A stretch of DNA of 63,638 bases, filler included, from 6 parts of 6 records of this genome joined end to end with filler, not necessarily neighbours in it; one strand, 5' to 3'; positions 3,917 to 56,373 are shown, counted from the whole stretch's first letter. A program made the numbers and translations. Notes: generated by a model from the letters alone, not told the origin.

Positions 3917-5149
3917 TCACTCGGCGCGGGTTGCGATCAGCTCCACCGTGATATCAACGCCAAAGCCCAGCGTGCCGTCGTCCTGCGTGCCGGTGCCGAC
4001 GTTGAAGTCCAGCCGGTTGACTTCGGTGCGACCGCTCATGGTGGCCGTGTCGCCTTCGATCTCCAGCGTGAAGGGCAGGGTGGTGGGCACTGATTGGTCG
4101 CGGATGGTGAGCGTGCCTTGCGCCTCGTAGCTTGTGCCCTCGATCTGCACGATGTCGGCCGCAAACACCGCGGATGGGTAGGCTTCCGCACCGAAGTAAT
4201 CAGCCCCCATGGCCTGATCCGTGACAGATCCCAGCGTCAGCGACGGAATGGCGATCGTCACCTCCACATCACCGGCAGGGCCGGGCGCGTCGGGCTCGGC
4301 GAAGGTGATATTGGCGCTCCAGTCTGCAAAGCTGCCGCTCACGGCGCTGCCCATCTGCACGACCTCGATGCCGAGGGTGCCGCTTTGGACCGCCCAGCCA
4401 GAGCCCTCGGCGGTCTGACTTGCGATCGGCGCGGCAGGTTCCGCGGCGCTGTGTGAGCGCACAAACAGCGCCGTGCTGCCGCCGATCACCATGGTCCACA
4501 CCAGCACAGCGGTGACGAAGGGCAGAACCGAGTGCGTCTGCGCCGGGGGCTCCGGCATGGCGCGCTCTCCGGGCAGCATCCGCAGAAGGGTGCTGTCCTT
4601 GTCGATCACATGGTGTTTCAGCGCGCCGGCCACATGGGCGAGGATCGACGCCCCCAGCAGCAACATGGCATAATAATGTATGCTGGCGAACATTTCCGAC
4701 AGCAGCTCGGATTTCGGCACCATCGGCAGGTTTTGCCCGAACGGCCACCAGATCGGGGCAAACCCGTCCGTCGCGGCGTGGTGGATCCAGCCTGACAGGG
4801 GCACGATCACCATCGCACAATAGAGCACCCAATGCGCGGTCTCTGCCGCCCAGGCCTCCAGCTTGCGATCCGGGTGCAGGAGGCGCGGTTTCTCCTGGGT
4901 GATTGCCCACAGAATGCGCAGCAGCGCCGTGAAGAACACCGTGACGCCAATGGTCTTATGCAGGGAAAATAGCAGTTTGGCGCGATCTATCGTGGCTTGG
5001 GAGCCGTCGAACTCCGGGCCCTGAATTGTATGGGCGAGAGAGTTGGCGAAATACCCAAGGGGAAAGGCGGTGAGGATCAGCAAGGCAGTCAGCCAGTGAA
5101 AGCTCTTGCTGACAGAGCCATAACTCTGGTGGGTGTTGAGACGGGACAT
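3917..5149 (-). CDS. Cytochrome b561-YceI fusion protein
   Basis: Haem-ligand motifs FHWLTA, LHKTIG and HVAGALKHH; C-terminal YceI domain (GTLTIRD, VNRLDFNVG). Confidence 0.9.
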   Translation of the reverse strand: MSRLNTHQSYGSVSKSFHWLTALLILTAFPLGYFANSLAHTIQGPEFDGSQATIDRAKLLFSLHKTIGVTVFFTALLRILWAITQEKPRLLHPDRKLEAWAAETAHWVLYCAMVIVPLSGWIHHAATDGFAPIWWPFGQNLPMVPKSELLSEMFASIHYYAMLLLGASILAHVAGALKHHVIDKDSTLLRMLPGERAMPEPPAQTHSVLPFVTAVLVWTMVIGGSTALFVRSHSAAEPAAPIASQTAEGSGWAVQSGTLGIEVVQMGSAVSGSFADWSANITFAEPDAPGPAGDVEVTIAIPSLTLGSVTDQAMGADYFGAEAYPSAVFAADIVQIEGTSYEAQGTLTIRDQSVPTTLPFTLEIEGDTATMSGRTEVNRLDFNVGTGTQDDGTLGFGVDITVELIATRAE

Positions 5150-5397
5150 GGGACATCGGTCCTTACTGGGGCTAGCGTTGGTTCCAACCTAGCAACACAG
5201 GAGGTAGGCGCAATCATCAGTAGTATTCGCTCATGCACAGGTGATCTGCGCCCGTGAGTCCACGAGCGCGTCCACGCGTGCGGCTGGCGCTGTGGAATTG
5301 TCCACAGCCGCGTGGATTTCACCGAACCCAATGCTTGTGTGCCCGTTCCGCCCCGTTTAAACCAACGCAGAAGACAGTTTTTTGAATGAGGACAGCC

Positions 5398-7492: not shown

Positions 7493-7592
7493 NNNNNNNN
7501 NNNNNNNNNNNNNNNNNNNNNNNNNNNNNNNNNNNNTTAATTAATTAANNNNNNNNNNNNNNNNNNNNNNNNNNNNNNNNNNNNNNNNNNNN
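7493..7592. other. Artificial contig spacer
   Basis: 44 N + TTAATTAATTAA (stops in all six frames) + 44 N. Confidence 0.99.
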
Positions 7593-7670: not shown

Positions 7671-10600
7671 CTCGAAGGCTTCGCGCTCGCGTGTTTCCTC
7701 GCGAATGCGGCGCGCGTTTTCGTCATCGAACCCTTCGCCGACGGCGTCGCTTTCGCTGTCCTCGTCGTCCTCATCACCGTCATCACCAGATGCATCTGTT
7801 GAGATGTTTTCACCGTCATAACACCCCAGGCATGACATATGCCATTGTAACGGATACGTATGAGTCAACGCACGAAAAAAAAATCTGCTGGATCGCACAT
7901 GCGCACACGATCCAAGCCTGTGTCCCGTGTGCGCTCCGAATTCACACGTCCTGCCTGCGCAAATCGGCAAGCTGTACAAATTAAAACTTCATACGCTCGC
8001 GCATGGCAGTGTACCGCCATAAAACACATGATGCTACCCATGCAATGCTACCTCGCTAGGCACTCTCATCGTAGATACAAACTGCTCACACGCGAAGGAG
8101 AAAGAGCAAAGTAGGACGCGAACCGCAGACTTCAAGAGCAAAGCCCTTTCCCCTCTCCCTACCGTGATGTCGCGGCAACATATGTCTGCAAGAACGGACC
8201 TGGCTTTGACGCAGAGGCCGCTTCTAGCGCCTTTGCTTCTGCGCGTCGCTTTTCCGCGTCAGAGATGGAACGCGACGGCGCGGCCTTTGGCAGAGCCGCG
8301 CCCTCGACGGCAGCCGCAACGCGGAGCGCGCCGAGCCAGAGCCCCGACTCGTCGCTGGCAAGATCAATCTGCGGAGGATACTGCAGATTCAGGCTGATAA
8401 AACGCATCCGACAAAGCACCAAAGAGCGGACGACAGGTGTGAGGATACTTCCAATCAACATACATTGAGATGCATACAAAAAATAAGACTGCTCGTCAGG
8501 AACGGATCTCAGAGGAAAGAGAGCACAATAGGGATGAACGATCCTCCGTGTGGATAGTATGCGATCACCACTGGAGCGGGAGAGAGGGAGCAAGTCGGAA
8601 TACCATACCTGCGGTACAGTTTGAGATTGATAAAATGCAAGAATGTTTCGTAAAACTCGAGGAACGAGCTCATGACACGAAAATCGACATCCTGTACGTT
8701 GCAACACGAGCAACATGGGAGCAGGAATACGTGAGATACAACGGTACCAACGAAGACGCATACAACGAGCACTTGCGCACAACGCATTGCTTACAGTGCA
8801 AAATTTAGCGCGGGGAGGGGGGGGTTGCACGATCCTGCGACCTATCCGCTTGCATCGCCAGCGATCAACTGTATATCGACAGTGTATTTTCGTGTTCATA
8901 CCGTGGGAGGCTGATGAGCGTAGTTGTATGTTGTGAGCCATGTTACTGGTTGACCCAACACATCAGCCTGATAGTATATCCCTTTAATCGAAAGGAAGAC
9001 TTTGCGAAGACCCTGTGGAGGACCAGAGAGGTGCGTACGACACGTAAAACAAAGCACGTAGTGCACTAGGCATGGTAAGGCACACAATTTAATTGCGGCG
9101 TCCAAAAGGCGTCGAAAGCGGGCACTTTGGACGATGAGCCTTGCACAACAATCTCACGTGCTTGCTCTCTTCCTTACGCTTCTGAGACGACTCGGTTCGC
9201 GCGCTGCTAAGCTACGAGATTAGATGCGCAGATCGGCAAAATCAACCGATTCCATACGCGCAAATACGACTGACCTTGGAACGGATAACGTAGTGCTGGA
9301 ATTCGCGACAGAGCCTTCGGCAATTTTCGATTCGCTGTGCGGGGACTGTGTGCGAGGCTGGCATATGCGCGAAAGTATGAACAAGAGTCAACGCGTCGTC
9401 CATGTCACGCACAGCGTCGATAAATGTCGGATATCTTTCCTAAACAGTACAGTACAACAATGACAGGCGGTAATATCACAGGTTCAGACATAGGTGAGGA
9501 GATGCAAGATGTTTTGTCATCACAGCGCGGTTTCCCGTGCGTACAGCGTTTGCGAGAATCCGAGCCTCCGCACGTGCAACAAAAAAGAAAAGAAGAAAAT
9601 TGCAATGCATCCTAACCCGCCACTTGAACGAACCTTGACAACATGCAAAAGCGTGATCTTCGGTCGTGAGGACTTGTCGATATCACGCGCAAGGTCGGTC
9701 TGGCCGCGACCGATGAGTTTGCGCACCCGCTACAGCGTAGGTACCACAACCCAACGGCAAAGAGCATGTCCTGGCGACGTCAGCAAGAGAACGGCGCTGC
9801 ATCCACCGCCTCAATATCCACGATATTCCTAGCAAAAACAGCTGTAATTTAACATTGGTAGTCATGGACGTTAATTGTTCCAGGCAAAGCGAGCGCACTT
9901 CCTCCGGCGGCAAGCACGCAGCCCGTACACAGCGAGCGCAGCATGGGCTGTGGCCTCGGCGTGCTGCGTGCTTGCCACGGTTGCCTTGGAGCGCCGTTCA
10001 AAACGACGTTCTTTTGCAGTGTGTGCTCGCATAAGCTCCCCGTGGCACGTAAGTGTACACGTACCTTCAAATGAGACTTGAGTTGCCGGAACTTGTCCAC
10101 AATTGGCTCATGGGAAAGAAACTACGCACAGCAAGTATTGTCAGCGGGCGCAGCATGCGCGGCAGTCAGGTTCCTGAGCTTCCAGAAAACAGAGGCTTGT
10201 GCCGAACCCAGGTCGTCAACAAGGCGCGGCACTGCTGTACTGTGCACGCAATAGATGAACCCACTGTTAAATCTAATTCAAGAGTGATGAAAGATTGCTA
10301 GTGGAAAAGCGGTTTCAGGAGCCCGTTCCCAACGTGCACCATGTCAGCGCGACGCCTGCAGTGCAGGCAGCCGTGGCGCGGGCAAAAACGCTGCGGCACC
10401 GCCAGCCCTGCCGCAAGTACAGTGCTCTTCCCCGACGCTCAGCAAGTTCTCTCTCTCCCTCCCTTTCTCCATTTTCGCCGTCCGGATACACAAAGGTGAA
10501 ATGTATCCTACTAGATGATTGTGACAGAGGAGCAAGGAAAGGCGCGGAACTACACGTGATCGCATCTGAAGGCTGAAGCAAACAGCGTGGTGCTGCGGAG

Positions 10601-11293
10601 CGCGAGAAACGCCGCGCGCACCTGGATGTCTTTCGTGAGGTAGTATGTCTTTGTCGGGCCGTGCGGCTTCTTCTTCGGTGCCCTCGGGTAGATTCCTTTC
10701 AAGATACAGAGGCGACGAAAGTCTTTCAATGACAGCTGGTTGACATGTACAAGCGAAGCGTGTTCAAAGAATGCGCGTCAGATAGCTGCGGAATGCCGAA
10801 GCCGACACGTGGTGAGAAGCTCTCCCACGCACAGCGCTCGAGCAATCGCCGTACGGCAGCGCCTGCGCACGCTCCGTGTCAAACGGGACGTGTGTGCCCT
10901 TTCGCCTCCAACAAAGATGCGGGGATAATCCATACCGTTACGATCAAACCAAAATATATGGGTGTGATACGCATGATTTGTACGACTTCACTCTCATGGC
11001 AAGCATAGAAGGCATTGGCTCGCGCGAGACGCGCAAGCGTAACGGGCGCGCAGCGCCGCACACTCGCACCGTCGCCCCCTGGCTGTGTTGCTGCACCTCG
11101 CTAGCAGGACAGCGAAGAATCACGGTCCTACCACCACAAAACAAACCCTGCCCCATGCCGGAGCGGTCTCACACGCGAGCACGATTCCACTCCAGCACGC
11201 GTTACACACCTGCAATCGTTTGAGAGCTTGCTGCCGCGTCATATACGTCGCAGCAGCTCCGACTTCGCCCTTCTTCTTCTTTGTGCCTCCCAT
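7671..11293 (-). CDS. PES1: Pescadillo/Nop7 60S biogenesis factor, spliced, 3' truncated
   Basis: GT-AG exons 11293-11210, 10735-10622, 10121-10065, 9729-9634, 9439-9275, 9012-8902, 8691-8609, 8393-8200, 7795-7671 join in frame: [86 protein letters not shown]. Confidence 0.95.
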
Positions 11294-11925
11294 GGTTGCG
11301 CGTGCAGCACGGCGCTCGATTGGACAGAGCTCGGAGCACGGCGAGTCCGTGCAGCGGCTTGGCACACACACGCCACGCTGCGCGTCAAACCGGTTAGGTA
11401 TATAGGGGTGATAAGTATAGAACCAGCGACGTTTTACACACCGCATCGCAGCGGCCCCTCCTGATCGGTTAGCCGTTAGGGTCTGATCACCTTCCGGCTC
11501 TCTTACCTCCCGCGAAAGCGCGCCGGTGCAGATACGCAGCCGTCGGTGTGCCAGAGCAGCAGCTTGTTCCCCTCGACACCACGAGCGCGCGCGCTATCCC
11601 GTGTAAACACCCGCTTCATCTATGAACGTTCTAAGTCCAAAGAGGTGGTTTCATGCTGCGGAGAACTTGAAGTGCAAAACAGAAAGCGAAAGCACTTTTG
11701 ACGGGCTTGGCAGCTTTCGGTCGTCGTGCATATGCCGACACGGAACGTAGATACCAACGTAGAGCAGGCCGATGTGATGCCCGCGCATAATGCCGTTCTT
11801 TCCCTTCTCGCATCCACTCGTCGTCAGATACATGTATTCGTTTGGATGAAAACATTTCTTTCCACAGAAAGCAAGTTCGCGCAACAGACGGGTATGCCAG
11901 CACCACAGCGGCCTGCCAAAGGACA

Positions 11926-14900
11926 CTACAACTCGCACACTTTGGTCTTGATCTCATCCATGAACTCCACGCAGTTGCTACAGTGGCACGCACACAGAAC
12001 ATGAGCACGGGGCATACTCTTACATATGAGCATACATGTGGGGAATGCAATGCATCTTGCTTTCGCGCAGGAATACAAGTGCGAGGTAGGTGCCAGCGCA
12101 TCCCAGCCGCCACGTACCGATAATCAATGGGCACTTCGATCAGGTGCACGCCTGCAAACAGCCACACAAGATACCCCACCCCACCAGAAACAGAAGAGTA
12201 GAAACCGTTAACCGGGCCGGACGTGAAAGATTATCGGATGCATATTTCGCCACTCGTATACAAATACAATGATACGGCAAAAGGCCCCGTCCCTCGCGCA
12301 CCCCCCAACACACGCGCGCCAAGGCAGAGACGCCGCGCCCATCCTCCCCTCCGCCACACCGGCGCGCACCTCCTTCATCAAGGCTCGCGCGGAGAAGGCG
12401 AGAAAACTCCGGAACCGCAGTGACCCGATGGCCTTTGGCACCGTACGCCTCTGCATACTTGACAAAGTCCGGGTTGCCGAAATTCATTCCAAACACGTCG
12501 TATCCAAGGGTCTCTTGCTGCAAAAGCCCGCCCCGTACGCGTCCAGTCAGAGATACGGGGGTTAGGTGCAGTAGCAAGGCGGTCCAGTTGCGCTCCTTCT
12601 GTCGCGAGCGCGAGCACGGCGGACGACGGCGAGGAATGCGGACTCGACGAACCTTGAACGCGATCATGCCATAGCAATTGTCGCTGACAACAACGATCAC
12701 CAGGTCCAGCTTGAGTCTCACCGCTGTTTCGAGTTCTTGGGAGTTCATCATGAACCCGCCGTCGCCACAAACGGCAATCACCTGGAGCCACGAAAGAGGG
12801 GAAACGAAAATTAGAGCGCAAGCCGTCCAAGGCCACAGACATGTCACAGCGCGTTGGGTACCAACATCACCGGTGACACTGACCGCAAGCGCAAGCCGAG
12901 TACGTGAGTCCCCATCGCCGCCCATAACAAAACGCGGAATTTTCCACTTTGTCCACCCACCATCACGCCGCTGCGCTAGGTGGACCGCACCTTTCTGTTG
13001 GGATACACCATCTTGGCGGCCATGGCAGACGGGAACCCGGCGCCCATGGTCGCCAGCGCGTTGTCGAGCAGGAGCGTATTGCGGTCCCGGGCGTTGTACG
13101 AGCGCGCAAAGAACACCTTGTAAAGACCTGCATGCGGATCAGGTGGCAAGCGCACGCGCAAGAAGCACTTCAACAACCAGATCGTTCTGTAGAAACGAGA
13201 GCATCCCGCCAAAGAAAAACTCCTACGGAAATCAAATCGATACAGGGGGGGGAGCAGAAACCCGAGTGGCACTGGGTGGGAAATACCGCTGCAGCCTTGT
13301 CCGCATCTGGCACGGAAACCCCGGCACGCAAGTTCGCCCATTTCAGGAATGACCGGAAGCGCTCAAGGTCCGCTGATACACCGCAGAGTCAACGAAGCTC
13401 GGGAGTGTCTACCTAGCTTACCATTATCCAAGCAGACGATTCCGTCTTCCGGCATCACACCGCGCGTGTCAGCGATAACGCGCTGGATACACATGGGAAA
13501 GCGATCATCGTTGTCGAATCGAGACGTGTCCTCGCGCACAAGAGCGGCAATTTTCTCAAAGTACGAAAAGTCCCACGCGCACTCGGACGGCACGAGAGCC
13601 TCTTTGATCTGCCAAATTGCATTCGCAATATCGCCGACCACCTCAACCTGAGGGAAGTAGACTTCGTCCACTTGAGCGGAATAGTAATTGATATGGATCA
13701 CTTTGGTGCCTCCTTGATGCATGAAGAACGGCGGCTTCTCGACAACATCGTGGCCGACGTTGATAATGAGGTCAGCCCGCTCGATTCCGCAGTGAATATA
13801 ATCGTCTTGCGACAAAGCGGCACACCCAAGATACCTGTTGGATAGTATCGGCAGTATACATAAATAGGTGATGGAACGTATATTCGAGTCAATGCACGGC
13901 ACACGGATGGGCACCTTGGCGCAACGCTTTCGCTGAAGCGTTCCTTCGTCTAGCCTGCAAGCGGGGCCATGGGCACAACAAAACCCGAGCAATGCACCAC
14001 CGGCGACGCGCGCGAACGAAAAAAAAAACGTACTGCGGAAGATTTTCATCGATGACACCTTTTCCCATTTGCGTATTGAACCAGTACATGCCCGTCTTGG
14101 CGATAAACTCGGTCAACATATTGCAGGTTTGCTTCCGGTTGGCACCCGCTCCGACGAGCAGAAGCGGCCTCTTCGCTTCCTTGATCAGTTGTAGCGCCCT
14201 GAAACGCAGGTGTGCGAATCAAACATTCGCAAGCGTCTCCAAATTACCCCGATTTAATGTGCAACCCACATATGGCGTCGTACACAGCTGACGTATGACA
14301 GCTAGTCTCGCATTTTCGAAGCAACACACTCGCGGCCGAAAGGGCACGCACAGCAGCACGTTGCATTTCTCTGGACCTATGGCACCACTACAGCTCAGCA
14401 GAATCATTGGCAGAAGCGCATGAACCCCATCTCAGCAAGAAACCGAGTCGATCCAAGACGTACGAGTCGACATGACATAGTACACAATGCATAAAACGAG
14501 AACGATTCTGCAGAATCGTGGCGATCGAAGCAAGTCTGCGAATGCCAAGATGCTGTGCTTTGCGCTGGCGAGCACCGATGCCCTCGTGAATGGAACAGGA
14601 AAAATCAAGGTCTACCGGCCACCTTTTTTCTCACAGAAGTCAGAACGAACGCAATAAAACGAAACAAGAGAAAGCTATACATAGAAGTCGTGGCACATAC
14701 ATGTTGATGGCTTTTTCTTCCGCAATTGGGCGGCGTTGTTGGGACTTGTGGAATGGCGTCTTTCCGAGCTCATCGTTGGATATTTCTGTGCACACGACCA
14801 GAAAAGTCGGAGAATATCGCAGCACGAATAGCAGAGAAAAGAATTAGGCATCCGATCTACCAGGTACCAGAGCCAGCTTCATAAGAATCAGGAAAGCCCG

Positions 14901-17254
14901 AATCAAATCCGTGAAGAAGCGGTATGGCAGTGCGCGCCTCTACGACGGGGTGCGTCGCAGCTGCTACAGCGCGCCAAGGAACGCGCGTGTTCCCGTGGCA
15001 ACGCCTCGACTGCGATTGACGTACCGCCGGCAACATCTTCAGGAAGCTCGATATGCACGGGCCCCGGCTTTTCCTCTTCTGCAACACGGAACGACTCGCG
15101 AATCTACATATGCGTAGATGGAGAAGGAAAACGGATGCAATGAGACCAGAGTCGACACCTCATATAGCACGCTCGTCCTGCGGAAGATGCGGCGGCGGCG
15201 GTGGCATAGAGGCTTACAACTCGCGCGAAATCTGCGCACATCCCCGAGATCCAATTGGCCACCGGCTGCGCACCTGCGGAGGCACGAGATTCGCGGAGAC
15301 GATCTCAACAGAACGCTTCGTGATGTGCGCAAAGAGCCCCACCGTATCGACAATCTGGAATCGACCTGCGGTGTTGGCACCAAAAAAATATATTAAAAAT
15401 CCGCCGCGTGATCGATGGATGAGCAGCCTGGTTGGGAGCTTCGCACTGCAGTTTTCGGCACCTTCTCATCTACGAAACACGCCCATATGCGCGTGATCAA
15501 CCCAACCGGTCTACGAGAGAGCAGCAGTGCAGTAGTGCCAGACCGACCTGGAGGCAATGGCACAGACGAGCAAGAAAACGGCAAGCGCTTGAACCAACGT
15601 ACCTTGCTTCGATTTCTTGATCGGCTTCTGCCCAGTGATGATGACCGACGGAAGGCCTGCCAGGTGCGCATACGCTGCAGTTGCAGCACAGTGACAGGTA
15701 TACCGATGATTACTATCAATTTCGCACTACAGCAGCACGTGTAGAGGAGGCAGCTGCGGAGTGCCCGCAAATCGCTCGCGAACACTTTGCGCCGGATCCT
15801 GTTGGGAGAAACATGCCAGTGCCGTCTGTTTTCAAACGAAATTTCCTGCTGGATTCGTGCGCCCCATGATCTCATGTATACACAAAAGAAACGGCATATC
15901 GGGCTGCCGTGTATCGTGGTGTTGCGAGCGTCACAAAACCACTTGTCCGGCCGCAAGGCGAAACACACCTGCGGAAGTGGCAAAGTTGGTCGCGCCGGGC
16001 CCAAGCGTCGACAGACACACCCCAGCGTGACCGGTCAGGCGACCGACGGTTGCTGGAGAAACAACGCAGCGTGGTGGAAACGTTGACATCAGCCAGAAGC
16101 AACACGCATCCACCGGCACAGTGGGCCGAGAGAGCGTTGAAAAGTGCTGACCCACACAGGCGACCGCAGCGGAACGTACAGGCCATGAATCCAGCAGCTT
16201 GCTCGTGCCGAGTGACAATCAGCTTCACCTTGTCCTGTCGGCGGAGCGCGTCTGAAGCGCAGCAACGGAGCAGTGCGGTAGTCCCGTAAGAAACATGACG
16301 CATAGAAAATTATCAAAAACCCATTCGCTCACTGTATCTGCAGTAAATTCCTGACGAAACCGGTCTCCGCCGCGACGGCGAACGAGCGCACGAGACAGCG
16401 TGAGATGGTGCGTCCTCAAACAACGGTGCGAAGCACGTACCAACAAGGTCTGCGCCGCGTGATACGAGAGAAACGCATCGCGGAGGGCCGTACGTCCGAA
16501 AGACAGTCACGCGAATCATGGTTCATATCGATGGATGCAGTGCACGGACAAAGGGAGCGCGCGAGGGTGAGTTTGCCGCGGAAGTGGAAGTCGTGCAAGT
16601 CGGCGGCCGGCGGCAAACTAGCAGCGGTAAACGCGCAGGAGTACACAAGCCACCACAGGAAGGGAACAAAACTCGCGTGCGCACACTGAAGAAGGCGTAC
16701 GCAAAGCTGTACAACGACAAGGCACTGGCACGACGGGTCCAGCGCTACGCAGATCAATCGCATACATCTTTCCTCTCGCATTCGCTCCTACGCTCGTGTT
16801 TCGGTGCCTGAGAATCCCGCGCGGTCCATCCGCGGACGGCACAATATCGGTTAGTAGACGACGAACCGGGCAGCGGCAGTCGTGCCTTGGGTTGCGGAGC
16901 ACCACTTGGTCCCGACACCGCAAGACCGTGGTCCTCGAAGCAAATCCAAGCAGTGCGCGGGCGGACTGCGCGAAGCGCGTATTTGCCCGTGCACGGAGGT
17001 CCCACTGCGCTAAATACGATGGTTTCCACTACTGGCGCAGCTGAGCGTGTACCTTTTGTCGATCTGGCCCACAAAAGGGACTGCTACGCACAAACGTCAG
17101 CCGGAAAGTGGGCCCACCGCGACTGACTGGGTCGCCATTTGCTGAACGCACCAAGGTTTTCCTCGCCGGGGACCCCAAAAATGTACTCAACACCTTCGTT
17201 CGCAAGGCACGCGACAAGCACATCGGCCGCGTTGGGAGCACGTGAATCACTCAT
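11926..17254 (-). CDS. ThDP-dependent enzyme of the bacterial acetolactate synthase-like / 2-oxoglutarate decarboxylase (OgdA-like) group; 15 exons, 557 aa
   Basis: Exons 17254-17152, 16449-16441, 16251-16180, 16052-15969, 15674-15603, 15365-15274, 15103-15025, 14785-14701, 14198-14034, 13834-13422, 13127-12991, 12781-12653, 12517-12370, 12151-12118, 11977-11926 total 1674 nt, all GT-AG and in frame. Motifs GVPGEENLD, TRHEQAAGFMA, TLGPGATN, TGQKPIKKSKQGRFQ, GHDVVEKPP, LLDNALATMGAG, GDGGFMMNSQELETAVR..DN. Confidence 0.92.
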
Positions 17255-17835
17255 GGCGTGGTATGATAGAAGAAATGGAAAACTTGTCGTGCGCAGATAA
17301 CGGGAACGATTCGGCGGTGTTACTCCGATAAAGGCAGGCAGGCGCGGCGGTCTTTGAGCAAGCACCGGCGAGGGAGCAAACGAGGAACGATGGCAGGGTT
17401 GTGCAGAGAAAACCTGACGCGTTCGCGGAGAGCAGCACACCAGCAGAGGCCCGCAAGTGCAAATGCGGCAACCAGCACGCTCCAAAGCGCCCACGTGTAT
17501 TCCAGTGAAAGAAGTATCAGAGAAACTATGTTGTAAAAGTTCTTTCAATAAAGCGATATACAAATTTGTTGGAACACGTGTACTGCGAATAGGAGAAGCC
17601 GCTAGCGTACATCCTTTTTAGCCCTATTACAGCTAACCATTATCCAGAAGGCTCGTGCTCAGGGTACGATCGACCCTGTCGGGACTTCGCTCGTGCGTCC
17701 AACGCAGAACCGAACCTGCTATTTGAGCCAAGCACCTTCACGTTCTGCTTGCCCCGGGTTACCGCCTTGCGCAACGCCTTTTGATCCCACTAACTGCACG
17801 CTGAAAACAAGGAAAAATACGTATCTACTCGTATC

Positions 17836-20800
17836 ATGTCGAATTCTGCGCGCCATATTGGTGTAATGGTGTCCGGCGCTGCAGCTTCTGGGGTACGCAG
17901 GTTGAACGCACCGCTCTGGCCTCACGGTAACTCGCTGCGTTCGCTCACAGGAACAGAGGCGACTGGTGTCTCACACGTACGTGCTGCTCACAACCTCGCC
18001 TCTTGTTCCTTTTTCGCTTTGCTGGTAGAGGTGCTGCCAATAGAGACGCTCAGTATGTGGTCATGAGTAGTGGTTGGCACCTTCACAGTTGACCCGCAAA
18101 ATCCCTGGGCTGGTGCAATATTTGTCAGGAGGTGGAAGGTTTCGCACGGCGCTCGTCCCGGTCCTTGCCATGTTGCAGCACTATGCTGCTCGCATGTGCC
18201 GAGGGACGTGCTTCTTGTTCCAATTTTGTCTGCCAGAGCTGGCGCGAAACAACTCCCAGCCTTGCCGCTTTCGCACACGCGACTGTCCCCATTTCCATAG
18301 ACGATTATTGTCAAGATACAAGCGATTGTGCATACTATCAGTTTTGTCCTTTCTAACCAGACAGCGCAGTAGCGCTGCGCGGGAGCCGTCGCCGTGCCTC
18401 TGACCGCGACAACGCGTTCGAATTGCTACCACTTGCAGAAGAAGCTTGAAGTGCGAGCTCCATTTGACCAGAGTGTCATTGGAACTCTCGACTGTGTCGG
18501 TCTGGATGGCGTGGAACAAGCATTCAACACTGCCAGAGCGCTTTTCCAGAACAAGTACGTACACCTTCACAAAGACAGGATGACAGGATTTCGCTTGGCG
18601 GCGCTGGCGACGTGCACAGCTGAGCAGCTAGCGGCGCTTGTTCTGTCGCGTGGATGCGCACGTGAGAAAGCGCATGCGGCTTCTCGCCCCCGAACCGCAG
18701 ACGCCTGCTTCTTGCCTGGTATCCGCATAGACCCTTCACAAAGCAGACAGTGTACCATTTATTACACGCATTGCAAATCTCAAGAGATGTAATGTTTTCA
18801 ATATGGGGTCAAATGCTACCTGGCGAACGCGGAACATTTCCCATGCGAGCAAATGGTGTCCGGCACTTGCAAGCGGCGCGTGCCCAGGCTTGGCAGTGCC
18901 GTGTCGTGCCGTTGGTTGGCGACGCGGTTTCCTTACGCTTGGCTGTGAACGGTGGATGTGCTCTGCACCGCGGTTACTGTTTGCGCAGGGATGGCTGGCT
19001 ACCGAAATGGAAACGCGTTGAAATTCTTGAGCGAGCGTCCGCACTTGCGCTGGAGCGCAAGGAGAAGTATGCGCTCGAAGCTGCCACAGAAGGTACGCGC
19101 TGAAGCGACTTTTTTTTCTCTCTTGCAGTGCGAGGTGGCTGGCTTGGACTACTTGTGCAGCGAAGCGGCACCGGCATCTCAAGACTACGCTCGCTGGCGC
19201 TCTTGCTCGGCTGAGGTGCACAGCTGCCGTGTTTTGTGAAACTCAATGTGGCTACAATTGTGTAGAGTGCGCGCTTTGTATGCATGAAACGGCCTCTTTC
19301 GTGGGGGGTTAGATAGGAGAAAAAGCGAGGGTCGATCCCCGTGCGTCGACGGTCCTGGAGTCTGCGAAGCACCGCCCACTCTCCGCGCTTGCTTTTCTAT
19401 GATCAGAGCTACGACCTTTGCACCGTCTCATTCACGCGCGTTTCCCTCGCGATATTGTGTAGGCGGAAAACCTTTCAAAGACTCCCTGGTAGAGGTCGTC
19501 CGGGCAGCTGATGGCCTCAAGTCGTGTGCGGAAGAGCTGCGCACACAATCGGGCTCGGAGATCCCCATGGGCATCACGCAGTCGTCGGCGAACCGGCTAG
19601 CGTTCACGACGCACGAGCCCATTGGCATTGTCGTTGCACTGTCCGCGTTCAACCACCCGTTCAACTTGATTGTGCACCAGGTTGGCCCGGCAGTTGCTGC
19701 AGGCTGCCCTGTCATTGTCAAGCCAGCTTCGGACACGCCGCTGTCCTGTGTGAATGTGGTTGAGCTGTTGTATGAAGCGGGTCTCCCACGCGAGTGGGTC
19801 CAGCTGGTGATTCCTGCCGATCGTGCCGTTAGTAGCCGGCTGGCGTCACATCCCGACGTTGCATTCCTCTCGTTCATTGGGTCCCCCGGAGTCGGCTGGA
19901 AGCTCCGGTCGGATCTACCCCCTGGCGCAAGGTGCGCGCTTGAGCACGGCGGGTGCGCCCCAGTTGTTGTGGAGGATGCCGACATCGACTACGTACTTCC
20001 CGTTCTTGTCAAAGGCGGATTCTATCACGCCGGCCAGGTGTGCGTAAGCGTGCAGCGCGTCTACGTTACCGGCGAAGAAGCGGCCAAAGAGTTGGCAAAC
20101 CGGATTGCTGCTGCTGCTTCCGCTCTCAAAGTTGGCGATCCGCGCGATGCCGACACGGATGTCGGTCCGCTGATTCGCCACAAGGAAACCGACCGTGTTG
20201 ACGAGTGGGTGAAGGAGGCTGTGGGCGGAGGCGCCGAGCTCATTTGCGGTGGGAAAAAGCTCTCGCCGGCCCTGTATGAGCCGACGGTGTTGTTGAACCC
20301 TCCCGACTCTTGCCGTGTGACGAAAGAGGAAATATTTGGGCCTGTTGTATGCGTGTATTCGTCCAAGAGTATTGAAGAGAGCTGTACTCGCGCGAACAGC
20401 GTTCCCTTTGCCTTTCAGGCTGCCGTATGTACACAGAACATCGACAAGGCAATGCAAGCGTTCCGCCTTCTCAACGCGTCTGCAGTCATGGTGAACGATA
20501 CCACTGCATTCCGAGTGGACTGGATGCCGTTTGCCGGTACGTTTGTAGAAATACGCTCCAGAAGAGGGCTATCATCTGGTCCTGATGCCACCCGCCCGTT
20601 GTGCGCGCAGCTCCGTCAGCGCCACGCACTTACTGTTACGCGGAAAGGATGCAGTCCTTTTTCCGCGGGCGGAGCATGCAAAAGCGTATCGTGGCGCGCT
20701 TCATGTGTACCAGAGTATGCTGGGTTGCGCCAGCACAACACTTTTGTCGCCGGCACCAGAGAACCGGCGCTTCACGTTCCCCGTAATCTCACGGGCTGCT

Positions 20801-20938
20801 GCGCCATGTTGCTCCGCGACCGACTCGCGTTTTTGTGTAGGACTGCGCCATTCTGGGCACGGAGTGGGCGGAATCAAGTACACGCTGGAAGACATGCAAG
20901 TGCAAAAGATGATGGTGTTGCGCTCGAAAGAATTGTAA
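17836..20938 (+). CDS. Aldehyde dehydrogenase, ALDH21/RL0313-like (candidate succinic-semialdehyde dehydrogenase); 5 exons, about 482 aa
   Basis: Exons 17836-17892 (least certain; alternative ATG 17866), 18439-18554, 18989-19092, 19463-20536, 20841-20938. Motifs EGGKP, SAFNHPFNLIVHQVGPA, KPASDTP, SFIGS, LEHGG, HAGQVCVS, EEIFGP, FRVDWMPFAG. Confidence 0.92.
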
Positions 20939-22180: not shown

Positions 22181-23776
22181 CTACACTGCGGCGATCATGT
22201 CCCACAGCCGATTCGTGATATAAAAGTCAGAGTTTTCGGAAGTGCTGCATTCCAAGTTCAAATACACGAAAGAAGAACGTGCGCAAGGAATCGTGAGACG
22301 GGAACCTGTGCGGAGAGGCACAGAGCAGCGCGAGCCCACACGCTCCGCGGCGAAGGCGCACCTGAAGTCAAAGTTCTTGGTACGCGACGCCGTGCCGCCA
22401 AGCACTTGTCCGCGCACAGTATCCGCATCGTAGTCCCAACGAATATTAGAAATATTTGAGAACAACCCGAGCGCGTACCTACAGCGGAAACGCAGCCGAA
22501 ATTAGAGCAGGCGATGCTTAGCGGAGGCTCGCCAACGTGCTGCAGCCACACGCAGCGCCCGCGCTGCGGACAACGTCGCTCGAGCGCTCACAAACTGCGC
22601 GAGGGGACAAAAACGATCCCACTCCACGACGCAAATTGCGGGGAAGGAACCTTTGTCAACATACTTGATCCGTGGGACGTCAACGCGGTTTGCATTTTCG
22701 ATTTCCAGCCGCTTGTCGCTGAGCTGAGCGCCTTGCTTCCGCAACACAGACAGGGCCTCGCGCAGCGACTCAATCTCGGACTCGAGGCTGTTCATGCTGG
22801 CGATCGTGGCAGCCCGCTCGTCCTCAATACCCGCCATCTACGCTCGCACGAAAACCGCATTTTCGTACACATTGTGCATCAGCTTCCGTGATGAATAGAT
22901 TCTATGTTTTATGAATTTTTCAGTTATCTTTAATAACGGAGCTGGTGGCGGCATGGACGGGATGCTCCGTACTTTGCTGCGCCATGCGAGACAATTTGCG
23001 GCGCACCTCACTGTCAAAACGGGCTTGGATTTCGTCCGGGTTCGCGCTGGAACGCAAATCCTCCACCTTTCGTGTGAGTTCTACGCAGCGCAGAATCCAA
23101 GAAGCAGGTATTCACGCGAATCAAAAATTCACACGACAAGAAAGGTGAGATCATCAGGAAGGGGAGCGAAAGAGCGCGCATTCGGTCTCCAGCTGGGACG
23201 GTTTGCACGCGGGTGCGTTCGTCACAAGCGGGAGGCGCAAAAGCAACAAACAGCTCCTTTCGCGCCAAACGCGGCGGCTGTGGGCGCCGCAGCGCTACCA
23301 CCTGCAGAGGCTCGCGCAGTTCTCTCAGCATGAGCCCAACCACGGTCGTTTCTTTCTTTACGAGATTGCAGTATACATCAATGATTGTGAAATAATTTCT
23401 GCCAGACGAATCTCTTTCAATTGCGTCGGTCCCAAAAAACCTCACCAGCGTCAAGGAGGTGCAACTCGGCCGAAGGGTATCGACTGCCGGTGCGGCGCCA
23501 GGTGAACGTTCACCGCGTGGCCCACAACGCTGCTGGACTGCTCAGCCAACCGCGCCAAGCACGCTCGATACAGACAGTTGTCGCCGTACCTTTGATAATC
23601 TCTTTGATTTCATTCTGCCGGTCTTCGCAGAGAGTAGAAATGTTTTCTTTTGTCTCTGAAATGCGAGCAAGCGCGGTGAAGTCGTTTGTGTCTTCATACA
23701 CGCGCGTCATTTCCTCCAAGACGGTGGTGAGCCCGTCGGAGCTGGCAGCTGCCGCCATCGCTGCTGCGGCGGACAT
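22181..23776 (-). CDS. SPC24: Kinetochore Ndc80-complex subunit Spc24-like; 5 exons, 204 aa
   Basis: Exons 23776-23590, 23080-23007, 22837-22665, 22478-22362, 22244-22181 in frame; coiled coil, then LFSNISNIRWDY and terminal FYITNRLWDMI typical of the Spc24 globular domain. Confidence 0.75.
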
Positions 23777-25077: not shown

Positions 25078-28000
25078 ATGGGGCCACCGCCACCGCGCAC
25101 TGCTATTGCGCACACGCGACCCAGATCGCGATATTCTCGGGAACCCGCAAACGAATCCCCCCACCCGGCCAAAAGAAATCCCTCCCAAGCTTCGCAGCGC
25201 TCTCTGTCATGGAGTGAAAGGTACACAAATTTCTGCAAGACAAACGGAGCTGCGGTCGATCGCATTTTCCTGGAGAGACTGCGACGCGGTGAAATACGAC
25301 ACGAGGTGCGGGAACCCGACAAGCTCTTCGTGCGCATCCATAGCGATCGTATGGAGCAAAATCCAAAGTAGATTCGCGCTTAGCGCCGTAACATTGTAGA
25401 GACGAAGTACGGACCGATGCTGCATTCGAATCCATTATTCCTTTTCGTATTTCCATCAAACAGCGCTCTTGGTTGCCGCTTTTTTCGCAGTGGCCACAGA
25501 GAAGGATGCGCATCGTAGTGTACGGAAACGTCCGCGAATTTCTTGTACGCCTGTCTCATTGTTGCGTTCGCGACCAGGCCCCAACAGGCTAACTTGCGGT
25601 TCTTGTCATCCTTTACTCCCCGGTGTGCCGTTGCAAAAAATGCAGGTCTTCGCCTTATGTGATGGAGCTGGAGAGTTTCTGAATGAAATGAGCAAAGATG
25701 GTGCGGCAGGGCTTTCGCGCATTGTGCTGTTTCATGGGACCGATCACGAGGAGAAAAGTCGCAGAAGCGCTTCGACCAGCCTCAAGCGCGCGCGCCGACG
25801 ACACACGTCGGGGTCAGGGTCTACTTCTCATAGCCAAGGTGAGAGAACCCAACCGTCTATCCTACAGCCTCACACGAAAACCGCCTGCCAGTCACGCAAA
25901 TCTTGTTTACTTCTCGAACTCCAACGCACCTGCCAAAACGCAGGCATCCCCGTTCCGGTCCTGCTAAAGAGTCGCGCTGGCGGGAACGGGCAGCGTTGCG
26001 CAAATCTGGTGCGACGTCTCCCACGGAGAAATGCAAAGGGCACAATCAGTGAGCTGCCGTGATTTGTCCAAACTGCGCACAAACTGACTCTTTTCGGTTT
26101 TCTGTTACGAGCATGGAGCAAGCAGAGTGTCTACCGAGGGTAAGCCACTAATTCGCTTTGACTACTTGCGTTGCTACGCTGCACGTCTCCTAGGGATTCT
26201 CACCCTCCAGAGGAAATCGCTCCACCGAATCTGGCGGTTACTGTCTCGATCGGCAGGAGTTAGCGCGACGCTCCAGACGATTGCTCTTCGCGGCGAGTGG
26301 ATTTCAGGCACAGGTACGGGACAGAAACGAGCGCAGACGCGAAATCGAGCATACGAAACGCCATGTCATGGCTCCAGCGGCTGCAAGTGCAAAAGCACAG
26401 ATGCCAACTGCCTGGCACACTCACACTGCGTACATATGTTGCTTTCTACAGCACGTCCACACGCCTTCATACAAGGCTTTTCGAAATTAATAATAATTAA
26501 TAACCACTGCCCCTCATCACGCCCCGGCCGTGTGACTATCGCTGTTGCAACTGTGAGGCGGAAGTGGTGGGACTCTTGCAGCGTTCGATTCCCGTTTACC
26601 ACTTACCATCTCCCCCATGCCCGACTGCTGGCGCAGGTCTCCGAACATTCGCCCGTGGACTGTCGCAGAGCGCACATCTGCACGAAATATCTATATCAGA
26701 GGCAAAGCTTGACGAAGCAGGAGTGAGCGCTCTGGCAAGAGCTCTCAAAGAAAACACATCTGTCCACACTCTGCGGCTTTGCAGCTGCAATGTGGGACCG
26801 GCTCTCGGAAACGAAATATCCCACGTAATCCAGGTAGGCTGCGAATTCATTTTTGCAGGAAAATCTTCCCTGTCTTTTTTCATTGATATATGCTAGTTTC
26901 GAGCGACAAAAACTCTCTGCAGAGTACATATCGAGCATAATGTGCGAGCGCATTCATCCGGTCCCGAGAGGAACTCTCGCATATTCTTTCATTTTGAGAA
27001 GCGGGAAAACGTACTTGCTCCGCAACAAGTTCGGCGCGAAAAGGTGGACTGTCGGCTTTCGATACGATGTATCGCAAGCACGTGTTCATCAGTAAGATGC
27101 AGGAGCTATCCGCTGCTCTTTTTGTTACATTCATGCGAACCATACTGACTATGCAGTGTATGTAGTGTCGCTTGTGATGAGTGGAAAATCGCGGCGCAAC
27201 AGCAGGCGCTTCCAATGTCAGCTCTTAGTATGAGGCGCTTGCTTTGCTGGTGCGCGTTCGTTGCTCCCACGGCGCAGCGGCAAACCGTTCGGAGAATGGA
27301 ATCTCGTTGGCTCCTTTCGCTAAGAGGAGAGGAGTACAAGAATGAACTTTCAGGAATCAGGGTACTTGACCTATCTGGAAATAGGCTGAACGATTCGTGG
27401 GCGATCGATTTCGCACGTGTCCTCAAGGTGCGACTTCTGGCGGTGAATTCCCGCAAGCCAGCCGTCGTAGGGCATTGCAAGGAGAGAATAACGATCTGTA
27501 ATTGGTGCCACTTCTGTTTGCCTTTCGTCCCTATATACGCAGTCATGCGGCACATATGCTGTGAATCTGTACCGATTGGTCTTATGTGCAACGTGCTCTT
27601 TTTGCTAGCTTTTTTTTCTTTCTCGCTCGTTCTCTGGGTTTGCTCAGTGGTTCCCTCCTTGCTTCCAATATTTGCGGATGATGCGCAGATGGACTCCTAC
27701 ATTACTGACGTCGACCTGCGTAGAAATGAGCTATCGATGCACAGTTTAGATGCCTTCCATGAACTCTTTGATGAAAATCGCACCCTGCGCAATTTGGATC
27801 TCCGTGAGAATGCTCGTGGGTTGCAGGGCCACTTTGTGGGCCGCGTCGACGTGCTCGCAGCATCGCAAGGTACTTCCCGCACGCTCAAGAGCCGTCTACA
27901 GGCTTGGCATCCGCCTGAATGCAAAGAATCCAGTACGAGAGCCCGTGTAATGATTGATGTTTCTAATGCGGTAGAGAACGATTCTGTGTGCATATTGTTG

Positions 28001-30212
28001 ATACTGTATTTTAGCATCTGGATTGTGTGTGCTCAGTGGTCATGGTGGTTGCTCGGAGGGAGGAAGCGGGACCGTTTCTGTGCACACCTTCCTTCCTCGC
28101 CGAGGAACTTGCACGGGCGACCTGTAATGTGCTGCTATCTCACTGCCCCTCTGACAATTGCTGCCTTGCACAAAAAGTATCCGGCTGGCTGTACTGCCCT
28201 AAGCTGCTCCAGCAGTGTCTTTTTCACACACAGCGACCGACGTTGTTCTTTAGAGCACCATAGTGCACTTGGATCATGGGCGGTCCCGCAATTCCTTTGG
28301 CTCCGTGGCGCGCGTCGACCCTAACGAGATTGGCAGCAGATGTACCGCTCGCAAGTGTCTTAGTTTGAGAACAGTCTCTTGTGTGCACCTTCACCATAGT
28401 CTTCGTGTGGAGGAATTCGTCTTTCTCGGTTTCAATGCGGCGGAAGTCCGCGCCAGTGTACCTCTGGCCGTGGCGGTTTTCAACGTCGTCGCTAGAAGAG
28501 ATGCTCCGCAGATGAATACGCAAATTGATTTTGCTCCGCGAAAGAACGTGTGTGATAACAGTGCATGCCTAGCATCACGCGCTCACAGAAAGAGTTTGTG
28601 CGCGTCGTTGCAGGGATAGTTGAGGATACTGAACACGTTGCCCCCGCTTCCCGCATGAACGGCGCGCGTACGCATCCCTCGGCGCCGATGAAAGCCTGGG
28701 CTGACATTGCGAAGAAGCCCGCGCGTGTCTCGGCGGCGAAAAAGTGTACAAAGTCACTGATCAAAGAAGTCAAGCACCTCCAACGCGAGCGTGTTCGGTA
28801 CGTATACCATAGCACAAAATAACAAAGTCAACATCTCATCAGCAGTGGCTAAGTTCGCAGATGCCAGATCGCAGTGCACAGACATTCGCATGTATTCTCC
28901 CTGATGGAAGGGCGAGGCGTAGTGCAGAACCTTCCGTGGCTTCGTTCTTGTGTTCTTGTTGCTGCTTATTATTGACGCCCGCATAGTGGTACGGATTAAG
29001 ATTTCGCCGGACTTTATGGCCCGTGGTCACAGCAACCCGGGAGGCGCAGCGATATTGGTGCGGAATTTTCGGCGAGTCTAGGTTATTGTCAGTGCGCAGA
29101 TCTCTCTGTCGCGTGCATCCGCTCTTCTGTCTTTCCCACAGTATCCCAAGCACAGCCTATGTGCAAAACTCAAACTCGTCCTTGTGTACTGTCTACAATA
29201 ACTTTGCCAACTACACTATTCGTTGAGCAGATTGGTTACGCTTGTGGACAGCATCCTTGATACGGTGCAGCTCATGTCGAACTCGATGTTGAAGGCTTTT
29301 GATGGGGCCAGCGCGTCTTCCGCAGCCGCCGCAGCCGTTGACGAATGTATTACGGCAAGGTGAGCGTACGCATGAACGTACAATCATATCAAAGACAAGT
29401 GAGCAATGCTTATGGGCTTCTCCTTGGCGGGGCATGCATGCACGCGCTCCGAGGGAGCCGGCAGGACGTCACAGTGCCGACACCGCCACGCCGAGTGTGT
29501 GTGGGGGTGGGGTATGCCGCCGGCGCACTCCTTGTACAAGTCCCGAGGAATAACGCTTTTGCTTTCCATTTTCTTGCACCGATGGCATTGTATTCGTTGG
29601 TATACTATTAATCGCACGATCTCTGCAGCGAAGCGTTGGAATCGGATGCCGAGCAAATACGGAAGCTGCTGATGAAGGGTCCATGTGCCAAGCGGTCGCG
29701 CAAGCAGAGAGTGGGGGTGGAGGCTGCCGCTCCTTTCCTTTCCTGCCCCGAGAATACCGTCCGCATTCCCACTCCGTCCAGCCCCGCTGCGAGTCTGCAT
29801 GTGGAAAACAGCAAGACGGATCCTACATATGATAGTAATACGCCAGATTCGCACAGTGATTTCTCAGAGGCGGACGAGGACGACGCCTCCGCCTTCGGTA
29901 CGCAGCGACCTGTGCAGTGCTTCCGCCCCGCACTCACGGTGCCCTTGCGACGCAAACGATCCTTCGCGTCGGCTGCGTGCGCATTTGAGGCTGCTCATCA
30001 GCCAATGTGCTGAAGACTTTTTAGGTGGCAAGAATGTTCATCAGACACTCTCGTATGCCTATGGTGGTCGGATAGGGAGTGCGCAACTTGTTTCTTGCCT
30101 GCGGGTGCTGCGCGCTTCTCACTATTCGGCCCTGACGCTTCAACCTGTGCACGCAGAGGACTCGTTGGGCGAGCATATTTCGTCCAAAATCAAAAAACTG
30201 TGGAATTTATAA
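25078..30212 (+). CDS. Leucine-rich-repeat protein, CEP78-like, multi-exon
   Basis: Phase-compatible exons 25078-25305, 25646-25838, 26194-26313, 26637-26833, 27278-27427 and one starting at 27689; RI-type LRRs (ALKENTSVHTLRL, VLDLSGNRL, LRNLDLREN) with insert QTVRRMESRWLLSLR recalling CEP78; later exons near 28600-28800, 29230-29360, 29630-29900 and a stop at 30212 are less certain. Confidence 0.65.
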
Positions 30213-30578: not shown

Positions 30579-30678
30579 NNNNNNNNNNNNNNNNNNNNNN
30601 NNNNNNNNNNNNNNNNNNNNNNTTAATTAATTAANNNNNNNNNNNNNNNNNNNNNNNNNNNNNNNNNNNNNNNNNNNN
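30579..30678. other. Artificial contig spacer
   Basis: 44 N + TTAATTAATTAA + 44 N. Confidence 0.99.
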
Positions 30679-34808: not shown

Positions 34809-34841
34809 AGTGCGTGACTCCTGTAAGCTTATAAATTATTT

Positions 34842-36330: not shown

Positions 36331-37697
<1,367 letters not shown>

Positions 37698-37797
37698 NNN
37701 NNNNNNNNNNNNNNNNNNNNNNNNNNNNNNNNNNNNNNNNNTTAATTAATTAANNNNNNNNNNNNNNNNNNNNNNNNNNNNNNNNNNNNNNNNNNNN
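37698..37797. other. Artificial contig spacer
   Basis: 44 N + TTAATTAATTAA + 44 N. Confidence 0.99.
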
Positions 37798-37870
<73 letters not shown>

Positions 37871-37973
37871 AATTTCTTCCCCCGTCATGCCCCTCCCGCT
37901 GTCTTAAACCGGTCAGATTCGCTAGCATACGGCTTTCCCCCGAAGCCCCGGATAGCCCTTTGGCTGGAGAGCG

Positions 37974-50256: not shown

Positions 50257-50356
50257 NNNNNNNNNNNNNNNNNNNNNNNNNNNNNNNNNNNNNNNNNNNN
50301 TTAATTAATTAANNNNNNNNNNNNNNNNNNNNNNNNNNNNNNNNNNNNNNNNNNNN
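50257..50356. other. Artificial contig spacer
   Basis: 44 N + TTAATTAATTAA + 44 N. Confidence 0.99.
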
Positions 50357-54285: not shown

Positions 54286-54330
54286 GACAGTTCCTTACGG
54301 TGAGATAGAAAATTGCGTGCTCTTTGCTTA

Positions 54331-55101: not shown

Positions 55102-55127
55102 ACTTTTTATCGCGGATCTCAGCGCCT

Positions 55128-56273: not shown

Positions 56274-56373
56274 NNNNNNNNNNNNNNNNNNNNNNNNNNN
56301 NNNNNNNNNNNNNNNNNTTAATTAATTAANNNNNNNNNNNNNNNNNNNNNNNNNNNNNNNNNNNNNNNNNNNN
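56274..56373. other. Artificial contig spacer
   Basis: 44 N + TTAATTAATTAA + 44 N. Confidence 0.99.

Follow-up and report, generated by a model that had tools for sequence, protein, structure and literature searches.

The stretch of DNA analysed here (63,638 bases, in the following called the window) carries at positions 11926-20938 two intron-containing genes in head-to-head orientation, one for a thiamine diphosphate (ThDP)-dependent enzyme and one for an aldehyde dehydrogenase (ALDH). On balance, our results favour the interpretation that a eukaryote acquired a bacterial module of ThDP-dependent decarboxylase and ALDH, which now forms a head-to-head pair for the conversion of 2-oxoglutarate to succinate. 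The more specific proposal, that a whole bypass operon was captured and made into a divergent, intron-rich and co-regulated nuclear gene pair running in the cytosol, is tentative and falls a little short of probable.

In this scenario, the eukaryote would have taken up a module of two bacterial genes, the first encoding a ThDP-dependent 2-oxo-acid decarboxylase and the second an ALDH. The genes would have gained 14 and 4 spliceosomal introns, respectively, and would have been inverted to the head-to-head arrangement with start codons 582 bp apart. The ThDP enzyme would decarboxylate 2-oxoglutarate to succinic semialdehyde (SSAL), which the ALDH would convert to succinate with reduction of NAD(P)+. 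The result would be a coenzyme A-independent route from 2-oxoglutarate or glutamate to succinate, probably in the cytosol. We infer the shared promoter, the substrates, the cofactor and the location of the pair.

The gene models rest on homology and on exon joints in the contigs of X1, a public sequencing run that we only guess to be RNA. X1 contains one third of the sampled words of the window, which is about the exonic share. An earlier note on this DNA had described two spliceable genes on opposite strands with starts about 580 bp apart. This holds, and the coordinates given there are exact. The models are as follows (ThDP exons in plus-strand coordinates):

11926-17254, minus strand: ThDP-enzyme gene, 15 exons, coding sequence of 1674 nt, 557 amino acids (aa), from X1 joints and homology
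17254, minus strand: ATG of the ThDP gene, with the stop codon TAG at 11926-11928
11926-11977, 12118-12150, 12369-12517, 12653-12778, 12988-13125: ThDP exons, first five
13420-13831, 14031-14197, 14700-14785, 15025-15103, 15274-15365: ThDP exons, next five
15603-15674, 15969-16052, 16180-16252, 16442-16449, 17152-17254: ThDP exons, last five
16442-16449, minus strand: 8-nt micro-exon of the ThDP gene, eight letters within the joint 16252>17152 of an X1 contig
17255-17835, no strand: region separating the two start codons, 581 bp, with both 5' untranslated regions and the presumed divergent promoter, GC content 0.518
17836-20938, plus strand: ALDH gene, 5 exons, coding sequence of 1449 nt, 482 aa, all four joints in X1 contigs
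17836, plus strand: ATG of the ALDH gene, with the stop codon at 20936-20938
17836-17891, 18438-18554, 18989-19090, 19461-20535, 20840-20938, plus strand: ALDH exons
19971, 20022, 20103, 20304, 20367, 20394: differences between X1 and the window in ALDH exon 4

At least 15 exon joints occur in the X1 contigs. The contigs leave out every listed intron, and the 15 joints that are listed, to which this statement applies, are all of the GT..AG type on the strand of the gene when small shifts are allowed. The splicing expected in the note is therefore borne out, with RNA as the guessed nature of the run. Three junctions of the ThDP gene (15365/15603, 15674/15969 and 16052/16180) are not among the listed joints; they were set from GT-AG ends, from the transcript length (321 nt) and from homology. 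The micro-exon has one sole match in its intron, is flanked by AG and GT after a shift of one base and is retained in the transcript contig. At the 5' ends, the ThDP transcript contig extends to 17404, and the first ALDH exon is visible in X1 from about 17863 to 17891.

The domain content agrees with these models. Aldedh (PF00171) scored 335 bits in 19399-20613 on the plus strand, above the gathering score of Pfam. On the minus strand, TPP_enzyme_C (PF02775, 77.5 bits) and TPP_enzyme_M (PF00205, 34.5 bits) were found in exon pieces above their cut-offs; the two pieces of TPP_enzyme_N (PF02776, 24 and 20 bits) stayed under the cut-off of 26.8 because introns split the domain. In tblastn, the minus-strand exons were colinear with residues 2-530 of a bacterial ThDP enzyme of 547 aa, and the plus-strand exons spanned residues 30-477 of a bacterial ALDH of 477 aa. 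In ALDH exon 4, the X1 contig departs from the window at six sites, always by a synonymous change at a third codon position. These changes probably reflect a strain or allele difference and, being synonymous only, fit purifying selection on the ALDH gene, as expected. Both genes are transcribed and correctly spliced in a eukaryote.

The bacterial origin of both genes, likewise claimed in the note, is supported by their nearest relatives, which are bacterial with identities of 60-67%. The ThDP model shares 60-64% identity with bacterial proteins of the NCBIfam family NF006187 (PRK08322), which themselves score 873-899 bits with this family (cut-off 509). Exon 13420-13833 alone reached 167 bits with NF006187 versus 49 bits with AlsS. 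The ALDH exon matched at least 120 proteins at 61-67% identity; all seven of them that bear the name of an organism are bacterial, and among 5.8 billion clusters there was no closer protein. The Protein Atlas search returned generic bacterial ALDH clusters alone.

NF006187, although filed as an "equivalog", takes in two deep branches, here called A and B, which are only 37-41% identical to each other (example loci L109:7743-9386, L138:7737-9380 and L154:2153-3778).

In bacteria, the two families of the window form a common unit. Among 80 genome loci that contain a ThDP gene of branch A, 57 have an ALDH gene in the same orientation no more than 1.3 kb downstream. With stricter open reading frame criteria, 79 pairs were found in 160 loci:

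26 pairs: branch A with type-i ALDH, the family of the window
30 pairs: branch A with type-ii ALDH
23 pairs: branch B with type-i ALDH

The operons of branch A with type i thus hold the same two families as the window, with identities to it of 60-64% for the ThDP enzyme and up to 67% for the ALDH. The bacterial genes lack introns and run in the same direction at distances of 0-300 bp, unless they are fused, whereas those of the window are divergent, with a 581-bp spacer and 18 introns. Fusion of the ThDP enzyme with a type-i ALDH occurs in 42 protein clusters of 1015-1048 aa (P0241-P0284, e.g. P0247 and P0263), of which the named ones come from Melainabacteria or Candidatus Obscuribacter. Since no other neighbour is widely conserved, the bacterial module is self-contained. 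In the ALDH tree, the type-i proteins that pair with branch A and those that pair with branch B interleave. NF006187 bears the name "acetolactate synthase large subunit"; because both branches sit upstream of the same ALDH family, this name is probably wrong for both.

Another type of fusion combines a ThDP enzyme of branch A with an ALDH21-like domain (1019-1121 aa; P0288, P0441 and P0591, from Logan and ENA contigs). A search of 1.84 billion representatives with P0288 (1108 aa) yielded one further fusion of its kind, P0441; the second fused hit, P0262, is of the kind with a type-i ALDH. An ALDH21-like protein labelled "Clim_" in EukProt is the sole taxon clue among the relatives of P0288.

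Which reaction the pair catalyses can be approached from both partners. For the ALDH, the moss enzyme ALDH21 offers a guide: bioRxiv 10.64898/2026.01.13.699213 describes it as cytosolic, oxidising SSAL with NADP+ and holding the SSAL carboxylate with Arg121, Tyr296 and Arg457. The window ALDH has all three of these residues as well as the catalytic Asn, Glu and Cys, and the full set recurs in 146 of 146 type-i ALDHs. Among solved structures, the window protein matches best with plant ALDH21 (Physcomitrium ALDH21A1, PDB 5mz5, a cytosolic NADP+-dependent succinic-semialdehyde dehydrogenase (SSADH); E 1.6e-70), with an identity of about 38% by hand count of the printed alignment. Type-ii ALDHs are the ALDH21 family itself (5mz5, E 2e-173). 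In the tree, the window protein falls into the type-i clade, and a branch with support 100 separates it from the ALDH21-like rows, which comprise type ii and, from P0288, the C-terminal half. The relationship to ALDH21 suggested in the note is therefore that of a sister family which keeps the carboxylate triad, not membership of the ALDH21 clade.

The ThDP model keeps the cofactor motif (GDGG...SDN, i.e. GDG-X-DN) and the catalytic Glu (HEQ). For the active site, the residues of the Microcystis enzyme MaKGD were assigned from their spacing, as the cyanobacterial sequence was not part of the comparison. The window enzyme matches 10 of the 14 published core active-site positions (382-471), as do 79 of 106 branch-A rows; in branch B, 15 of 16 rows match 12-13. 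Among the matching positions are K386 and K471, which are docked onto 2-oxoglutarate in MaKGD according to PMC10418658; the same paper reports that the characterised relatives of this kind decarboxylate 2-oxoglutarate and not pyruvate. The window enzyme thus lies outside the branch that best fits the assayed cyanobacterial enzyme, and the designation OgdA-like, which the note had used, is not supported with regard to this branch.

Gene context adds to this. Three ALDH families replace one another as partners of the ThDP enzyme, and two of them have assayed SSADH members. In two bacterial genomes of the candidate phyla radiation (CPR), the ALDH beside the ThDP gene of the window's group resembles solved chains named "succinate-semialdehyde dehydrogenase" (E 4e-154), which we take to be the enzyme of Synechococcus PCC 7002. 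A gene for NADP-glutamate dehydrogenase (761 bits, cut-off 536) accompanies the pair, adjacent to it or nearby, at 6 of 80 loci, and one for a glutamate-synthase-like flavin mononucleotide protein at 5 of 80. Because of the exchange of ALDH partners, the pairing of type i with both ThDP branches, the glutamate-linked neighbours and the ALDH residues, the most likely function of the pair, as far as sequence can indicate, would be the conversion of 2-oxoglutarate via SSAL to succinate. The reaction proposed in the note finds support in gene context and in the ALDH residues, but not in the position of the ThDP enzyme. The choice of cofactor is not readable from the sequence, and the NADPH production proposed in the note is unsupported.

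Several observations count against this assignment. Compared with MaKGD, the window enzyme carries the loop changes V382N, A384L, H385Y and L467M. In the full-text literature searched, no assayed enzyme from ThDP branch A or from ALDH type i came up. A Pseudomonas putida genome (G002, the genome of locus L047) has four NF006187 paralogues, each with more than 900 bits, and among the seven branch-A loci of Pseudomonas in the ThDP tree, an ALDH gene, of type ii, adjoins the ThDP gene at one, while none does so at the other six. Membership of the family therefore does not fix the substrate, and some sub-branches of NF006187 may have other substrates. Possibly, then, the pair has the origin and architecture described here and acts on another anionic 2-oxo acid, for example converting 2-oxoadipate via glutarate semialdehyde to glutarate, or forming malonate semialdehyde from oxaloacetate. 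Besides the four loop residues and the paralogues, two properties of the ALDH are in line with this: the Arg/Tyr/Arg triad would hold any omega-carboxylate, and neither the type-i ALDHs nor the window exon reach the cut-off of any NCBIfam family, the best hits below it being a mixture of lactaldehyde, sulfoacetaldehyde, phosphonoacetaldehyde and SSAL dehydrogenases. However, the neighbouring genes for glutamate dehydrogenase and the GltS-like protein indicate 2-oxoglutarate, and two of the three ALDH families that replace each other have SSADH members. We therefore regard a different substrate as unlikely, though as the most serious of the alternatives.

With regard to the origin of the genes, the best tree placements of both proteins are beside or among bacterial proteins. 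The ThDP protein falls into branch A of NF006187, in a group of 14 rows (support 97 in FastTree, 88 in the SH-like approximate likelihood ratio test, SH-aLRT, of IQ-TREE) which includes two CPR bacteria, one gammaproteobacterium, other proteins and one fused protein. The ALDH lies within a bacterial clade of 33 rows (support 100), beside a Planctomycetota protein. Each window protein was also placed on every branch of two fixed backbones (approximately unbiased (AU) test, 1000 replicates, LG+F+G4). The ALDH was again placed best beside the Planctomycetota protein, and a position outside all bacterial type-i rows was rejected with log-likelihood differences of 75 and 72. The ThDP protein was placed best beside the bacterial protein P0128 on both backbones, and its basal position was rejected with p 0.0008 and 0.025. 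Horizontal transfer of a bacterial module into a eukaryote is well supported by the identities of 60-67% and by the pairing and fusion of the two enzymes in bacteria, and the direction from bacteria to eukaryote is not in real doubt because the family spans many bacterial phyla in operons.

The remaining results on the origin are less favourable. On the FastTree backbone, positions of the ThDP protein near the root were not rejected. In clade tests with treekit, a tree with all bacteria together was not rejected either (p-AU 0.79 for the ThDP protein, 0.82 for the ALDH); since the constrained searches gave better trees than the short free searches, these tests are confounded and not decisive. 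The nearest sampled relative of the ALDH, P0017, is encoded on a 13.4-kb contig without a ThDP gene, and the sole ThDP gene of its genome lies elsewhere and is 42% identical. A search for P0128 in 401 sampled CPR genomes did not recover it; the best match there had 67%, and 7 of the 401 genomes gave matches at E<=1e-150. No sampled donor has the nearest relatives of both proteins side by side. Thus the two comparisons which the earlier note had proposed gave divided answers: the best placements and the rejected basal ALDH position speak for bacterial ancestry, but the clade tests and the ThDP positions near the root do not, and the same ThDP branch and ALDH family are paired in bacteria, but the nearest relatives of each are unlinked.

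These findings could also mean that the two genes arrived separately, or that they are ancient eukaryotic or organelle-derived genes lost elsewhere, and that the adjacency arose inside the eukaryote. The different, unlinked sources of the nearest sampled relatives and the clade tests fit such a history, as do the long end branches of both window proteins (0.53-0.66) and P0288, whose ThDP half falls into the same tree group as the window's ThDP protein and is fused to an ALDH21-like domain. Yet branch A and type i are closely paired in the same direction at 26 bacterial loci and are fused in Melainabacteria, which makes a chance adjacency unlikely; the basal ALDH position was rejected on the fixed backbones; and there are no cyanobacteria proper and no alphaproteobacteria among the nearest relatives that bear a name. 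We consider this alternative improbable. Since branch A with type i is a standard bacterial unit, a joint transfer of the two genes, followed by intron gain and inversion to head-to-head, is the simplest reading, presumably in a single event.

Two candidates were discarded in the course of these comparisons. Descent of the ThDP gene from the host's own acetohydroxyacid synthase (AHAS) is ruled out by distance, the biosynthetic eukaryotic acetolactate synthases being far more remote (E 1e-60 to 1e-70, with a bacterial proxy as the query). P0285, a "hypothetical protein" of 637 aa from JGI, was considered as a second eukaryotic copy, as its similarity ends exactly at the position of the window's last ALDH intron; a metagenome scan did not recover its contig, and its closest loci (80-81%) are continuous bacterial genes.

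A carboligase function of the ThDP enzyme (acetolactate synthase or similar), with a functionally unrelated ALDH as its neighbour, appears very improbable. It would agree with the NCBIfam name of NF006187 and with the finding that catabolic AlsS is the next-best family as well as the next-best solved relative. However, the ALDH partner is conserved while three families exchange in this role, ThDP-ALDH fusion proteins exist, and the characterised relatives act on 2-oxoglutarate as stated above. An artefact, i.e. bacterial contamination or a chimeric bacterial/eukaryotic assembly, is hardly credible: the window does mix contigs of several organisms, its other five pieces look bacterial, and no X1 contig was shown across 17404-17863, so that continuity there comes from the assembly alone and this point weighs against the linkage, but the genes have 18 introns (three junctions being those set indirectly) of which the listed ones are removed exactly in the X1 contigs, the GC contents of exons (0.55-0.58), introns (0.56) and contig (0.55) are alike, and their contig also carries a spliced gene for pescadillo.

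This neighbour and its surroundings can be described as follows:

7593-30578, no strand: eukaryotic contig, second of six, which bears the gene pair; GC content 0.547, bounded by N runs
10065-11334, minus strand: part of a gene for pescadillo, a eukaryotic ribosome-biogenesis factor; Pescadillo_N match and spliced X1 contig
22505-22837, minus strand: exon with weak likeness to Spc24; 17.2 bits, E 0.006, under the cut-off of 25.3

Pescadillo_N scored 54 bits on exon 10550-10777 (cut-off 28.6), the joints 10121>10622 and 10735>11210 are present in an X1 contig, and the gene lies 600 bp past the ThDP stop codon. The spliced introns and this spliced neighbour confirm that the pair is on eukaryotic DNA and is no bacterial contaminant, as the note had argued. 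Its location of the pair between pescadillo and Spc24 is firm for the former, while the score for Spc24 stays weak.

How does the pair relate to known systems? In cyanobacteria, OgdA/KGD and SsaD (the A2770/A2771 operon of Synechococcus PCC 7002; MaKGD of Microcystis) likewise combine an acetolactate synthase-like ThDP gene with an adjoining ALDH gene (PMC5160925, PMC10418658). The window pair differs in that it is found in a eukaryote, contains introns and is arranged head to head. Its ThDP enzyme belongs to another deep branch and has fewer of the core residues (10/14 versus 12-13/14 in branch B), but it retains the ThDP motif, the catalytic Glu and both of the docked lysines, and we infer the same overall reaction. 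Its ALDH is of a different family than SsaD, whose type is the third ALDH partner family. Both window enzymes are outside the assayed KGD sub-branch and outside ALDH21, in sister groups that would be expected to work alike. In Euglena, the corresponding enzyme is of the 2-oxoglutarate dehydrogenase E1 type. Euglena gracilis mitochondria contain 2-oxoglutarate decarboxylase and SSADH, and hence a eukaryotic route from 2-oxoglutarate to succinate known by activity, according to PMC6630311. That activity is mitochondrial, whereas the window proteins are not extended at the N-terminus relative to their bacterial counterparts. As a presequence-like extension is missing in both, a cytosolic location is probably to be preferred to a mitochondrial one, and a mitochondrial role in the tricarboxylic acid cycle is not indicated. 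A eukaryotic pair of this kind was not described in the full-text literature searched (supplements and subscription journals not covered). New, as far as these searches go, is the eukaryotic copy of the putative bypass pair; the reaction scheme itself is already known from cyanobacteria and Euglena.

If the proposed interpretation is true, a bacterial operon has kept its linkage after transfer to a eukaryote, and traces of its domestication are visible in the 18 introns and the divergent promoter region. Operons rarely survive transfer to a eukaryote as linked functional units, and this one would be such a case, with enzymes of sub-families in which no assayed member is known. The semialdehyde bypass of the citric acid cycle would then operate in another eukaryote, probably in the cytosol, and would let the host circumvent 2-oxoglutarate dehydrogenase and succinyl-CoA synthetase when it makes succinate and reducing power from glutamate or 2-oxoglutarate. 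Moreover, NF006187 would be a large misnamed family, with 2-oxoglutarate decarboxylation as the most likely activity of its main branch, and the metabolic reconstructions of many bacteria would change.

Further along the eukaryotic contig, exons resembling leucine-rich repeats were seen at 26504-28321 on the plus strand; no Pfam family matched the frames of 27149-28324 (E<=0.001) or of 26504-26893 (E<=0.01). The window as a whole consists of six contigs that were artificially joined by five spacers, and intron-less genes of bacterial type were detected on the other pieces:

7493-7592, 30579-30678, 37698-37797, 50257-50356, 56274-56373: spacers, each composed of 44 N, TTAATTAATTAA and 44 N
3917-5188, minus strand: cytochrome b561-YceI fusion gene, bacterial-type, no introns
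32178-34835, minus strand: PepN aminopeptidase gene, bacterial-type, no introns
36331-37671, minus strand: adenylosuccinate synthetase gene, bacterial-type, no introns
37956-39797, plus strand: DnaX gene, bacterial-type, no introns
52762-54294, minus strand: MFS transporter gene, bacterial-type, no introns
55023-56321, plus strand: AAA_21/AbiEii-like ATPase gene, bacterial-type, no introns

Because of these genes on the other contigs, the assembly is a mixture of a eukaryote with several bacteria. Between the pieces of the window the GC content shifts from 0.50 to 0.69.

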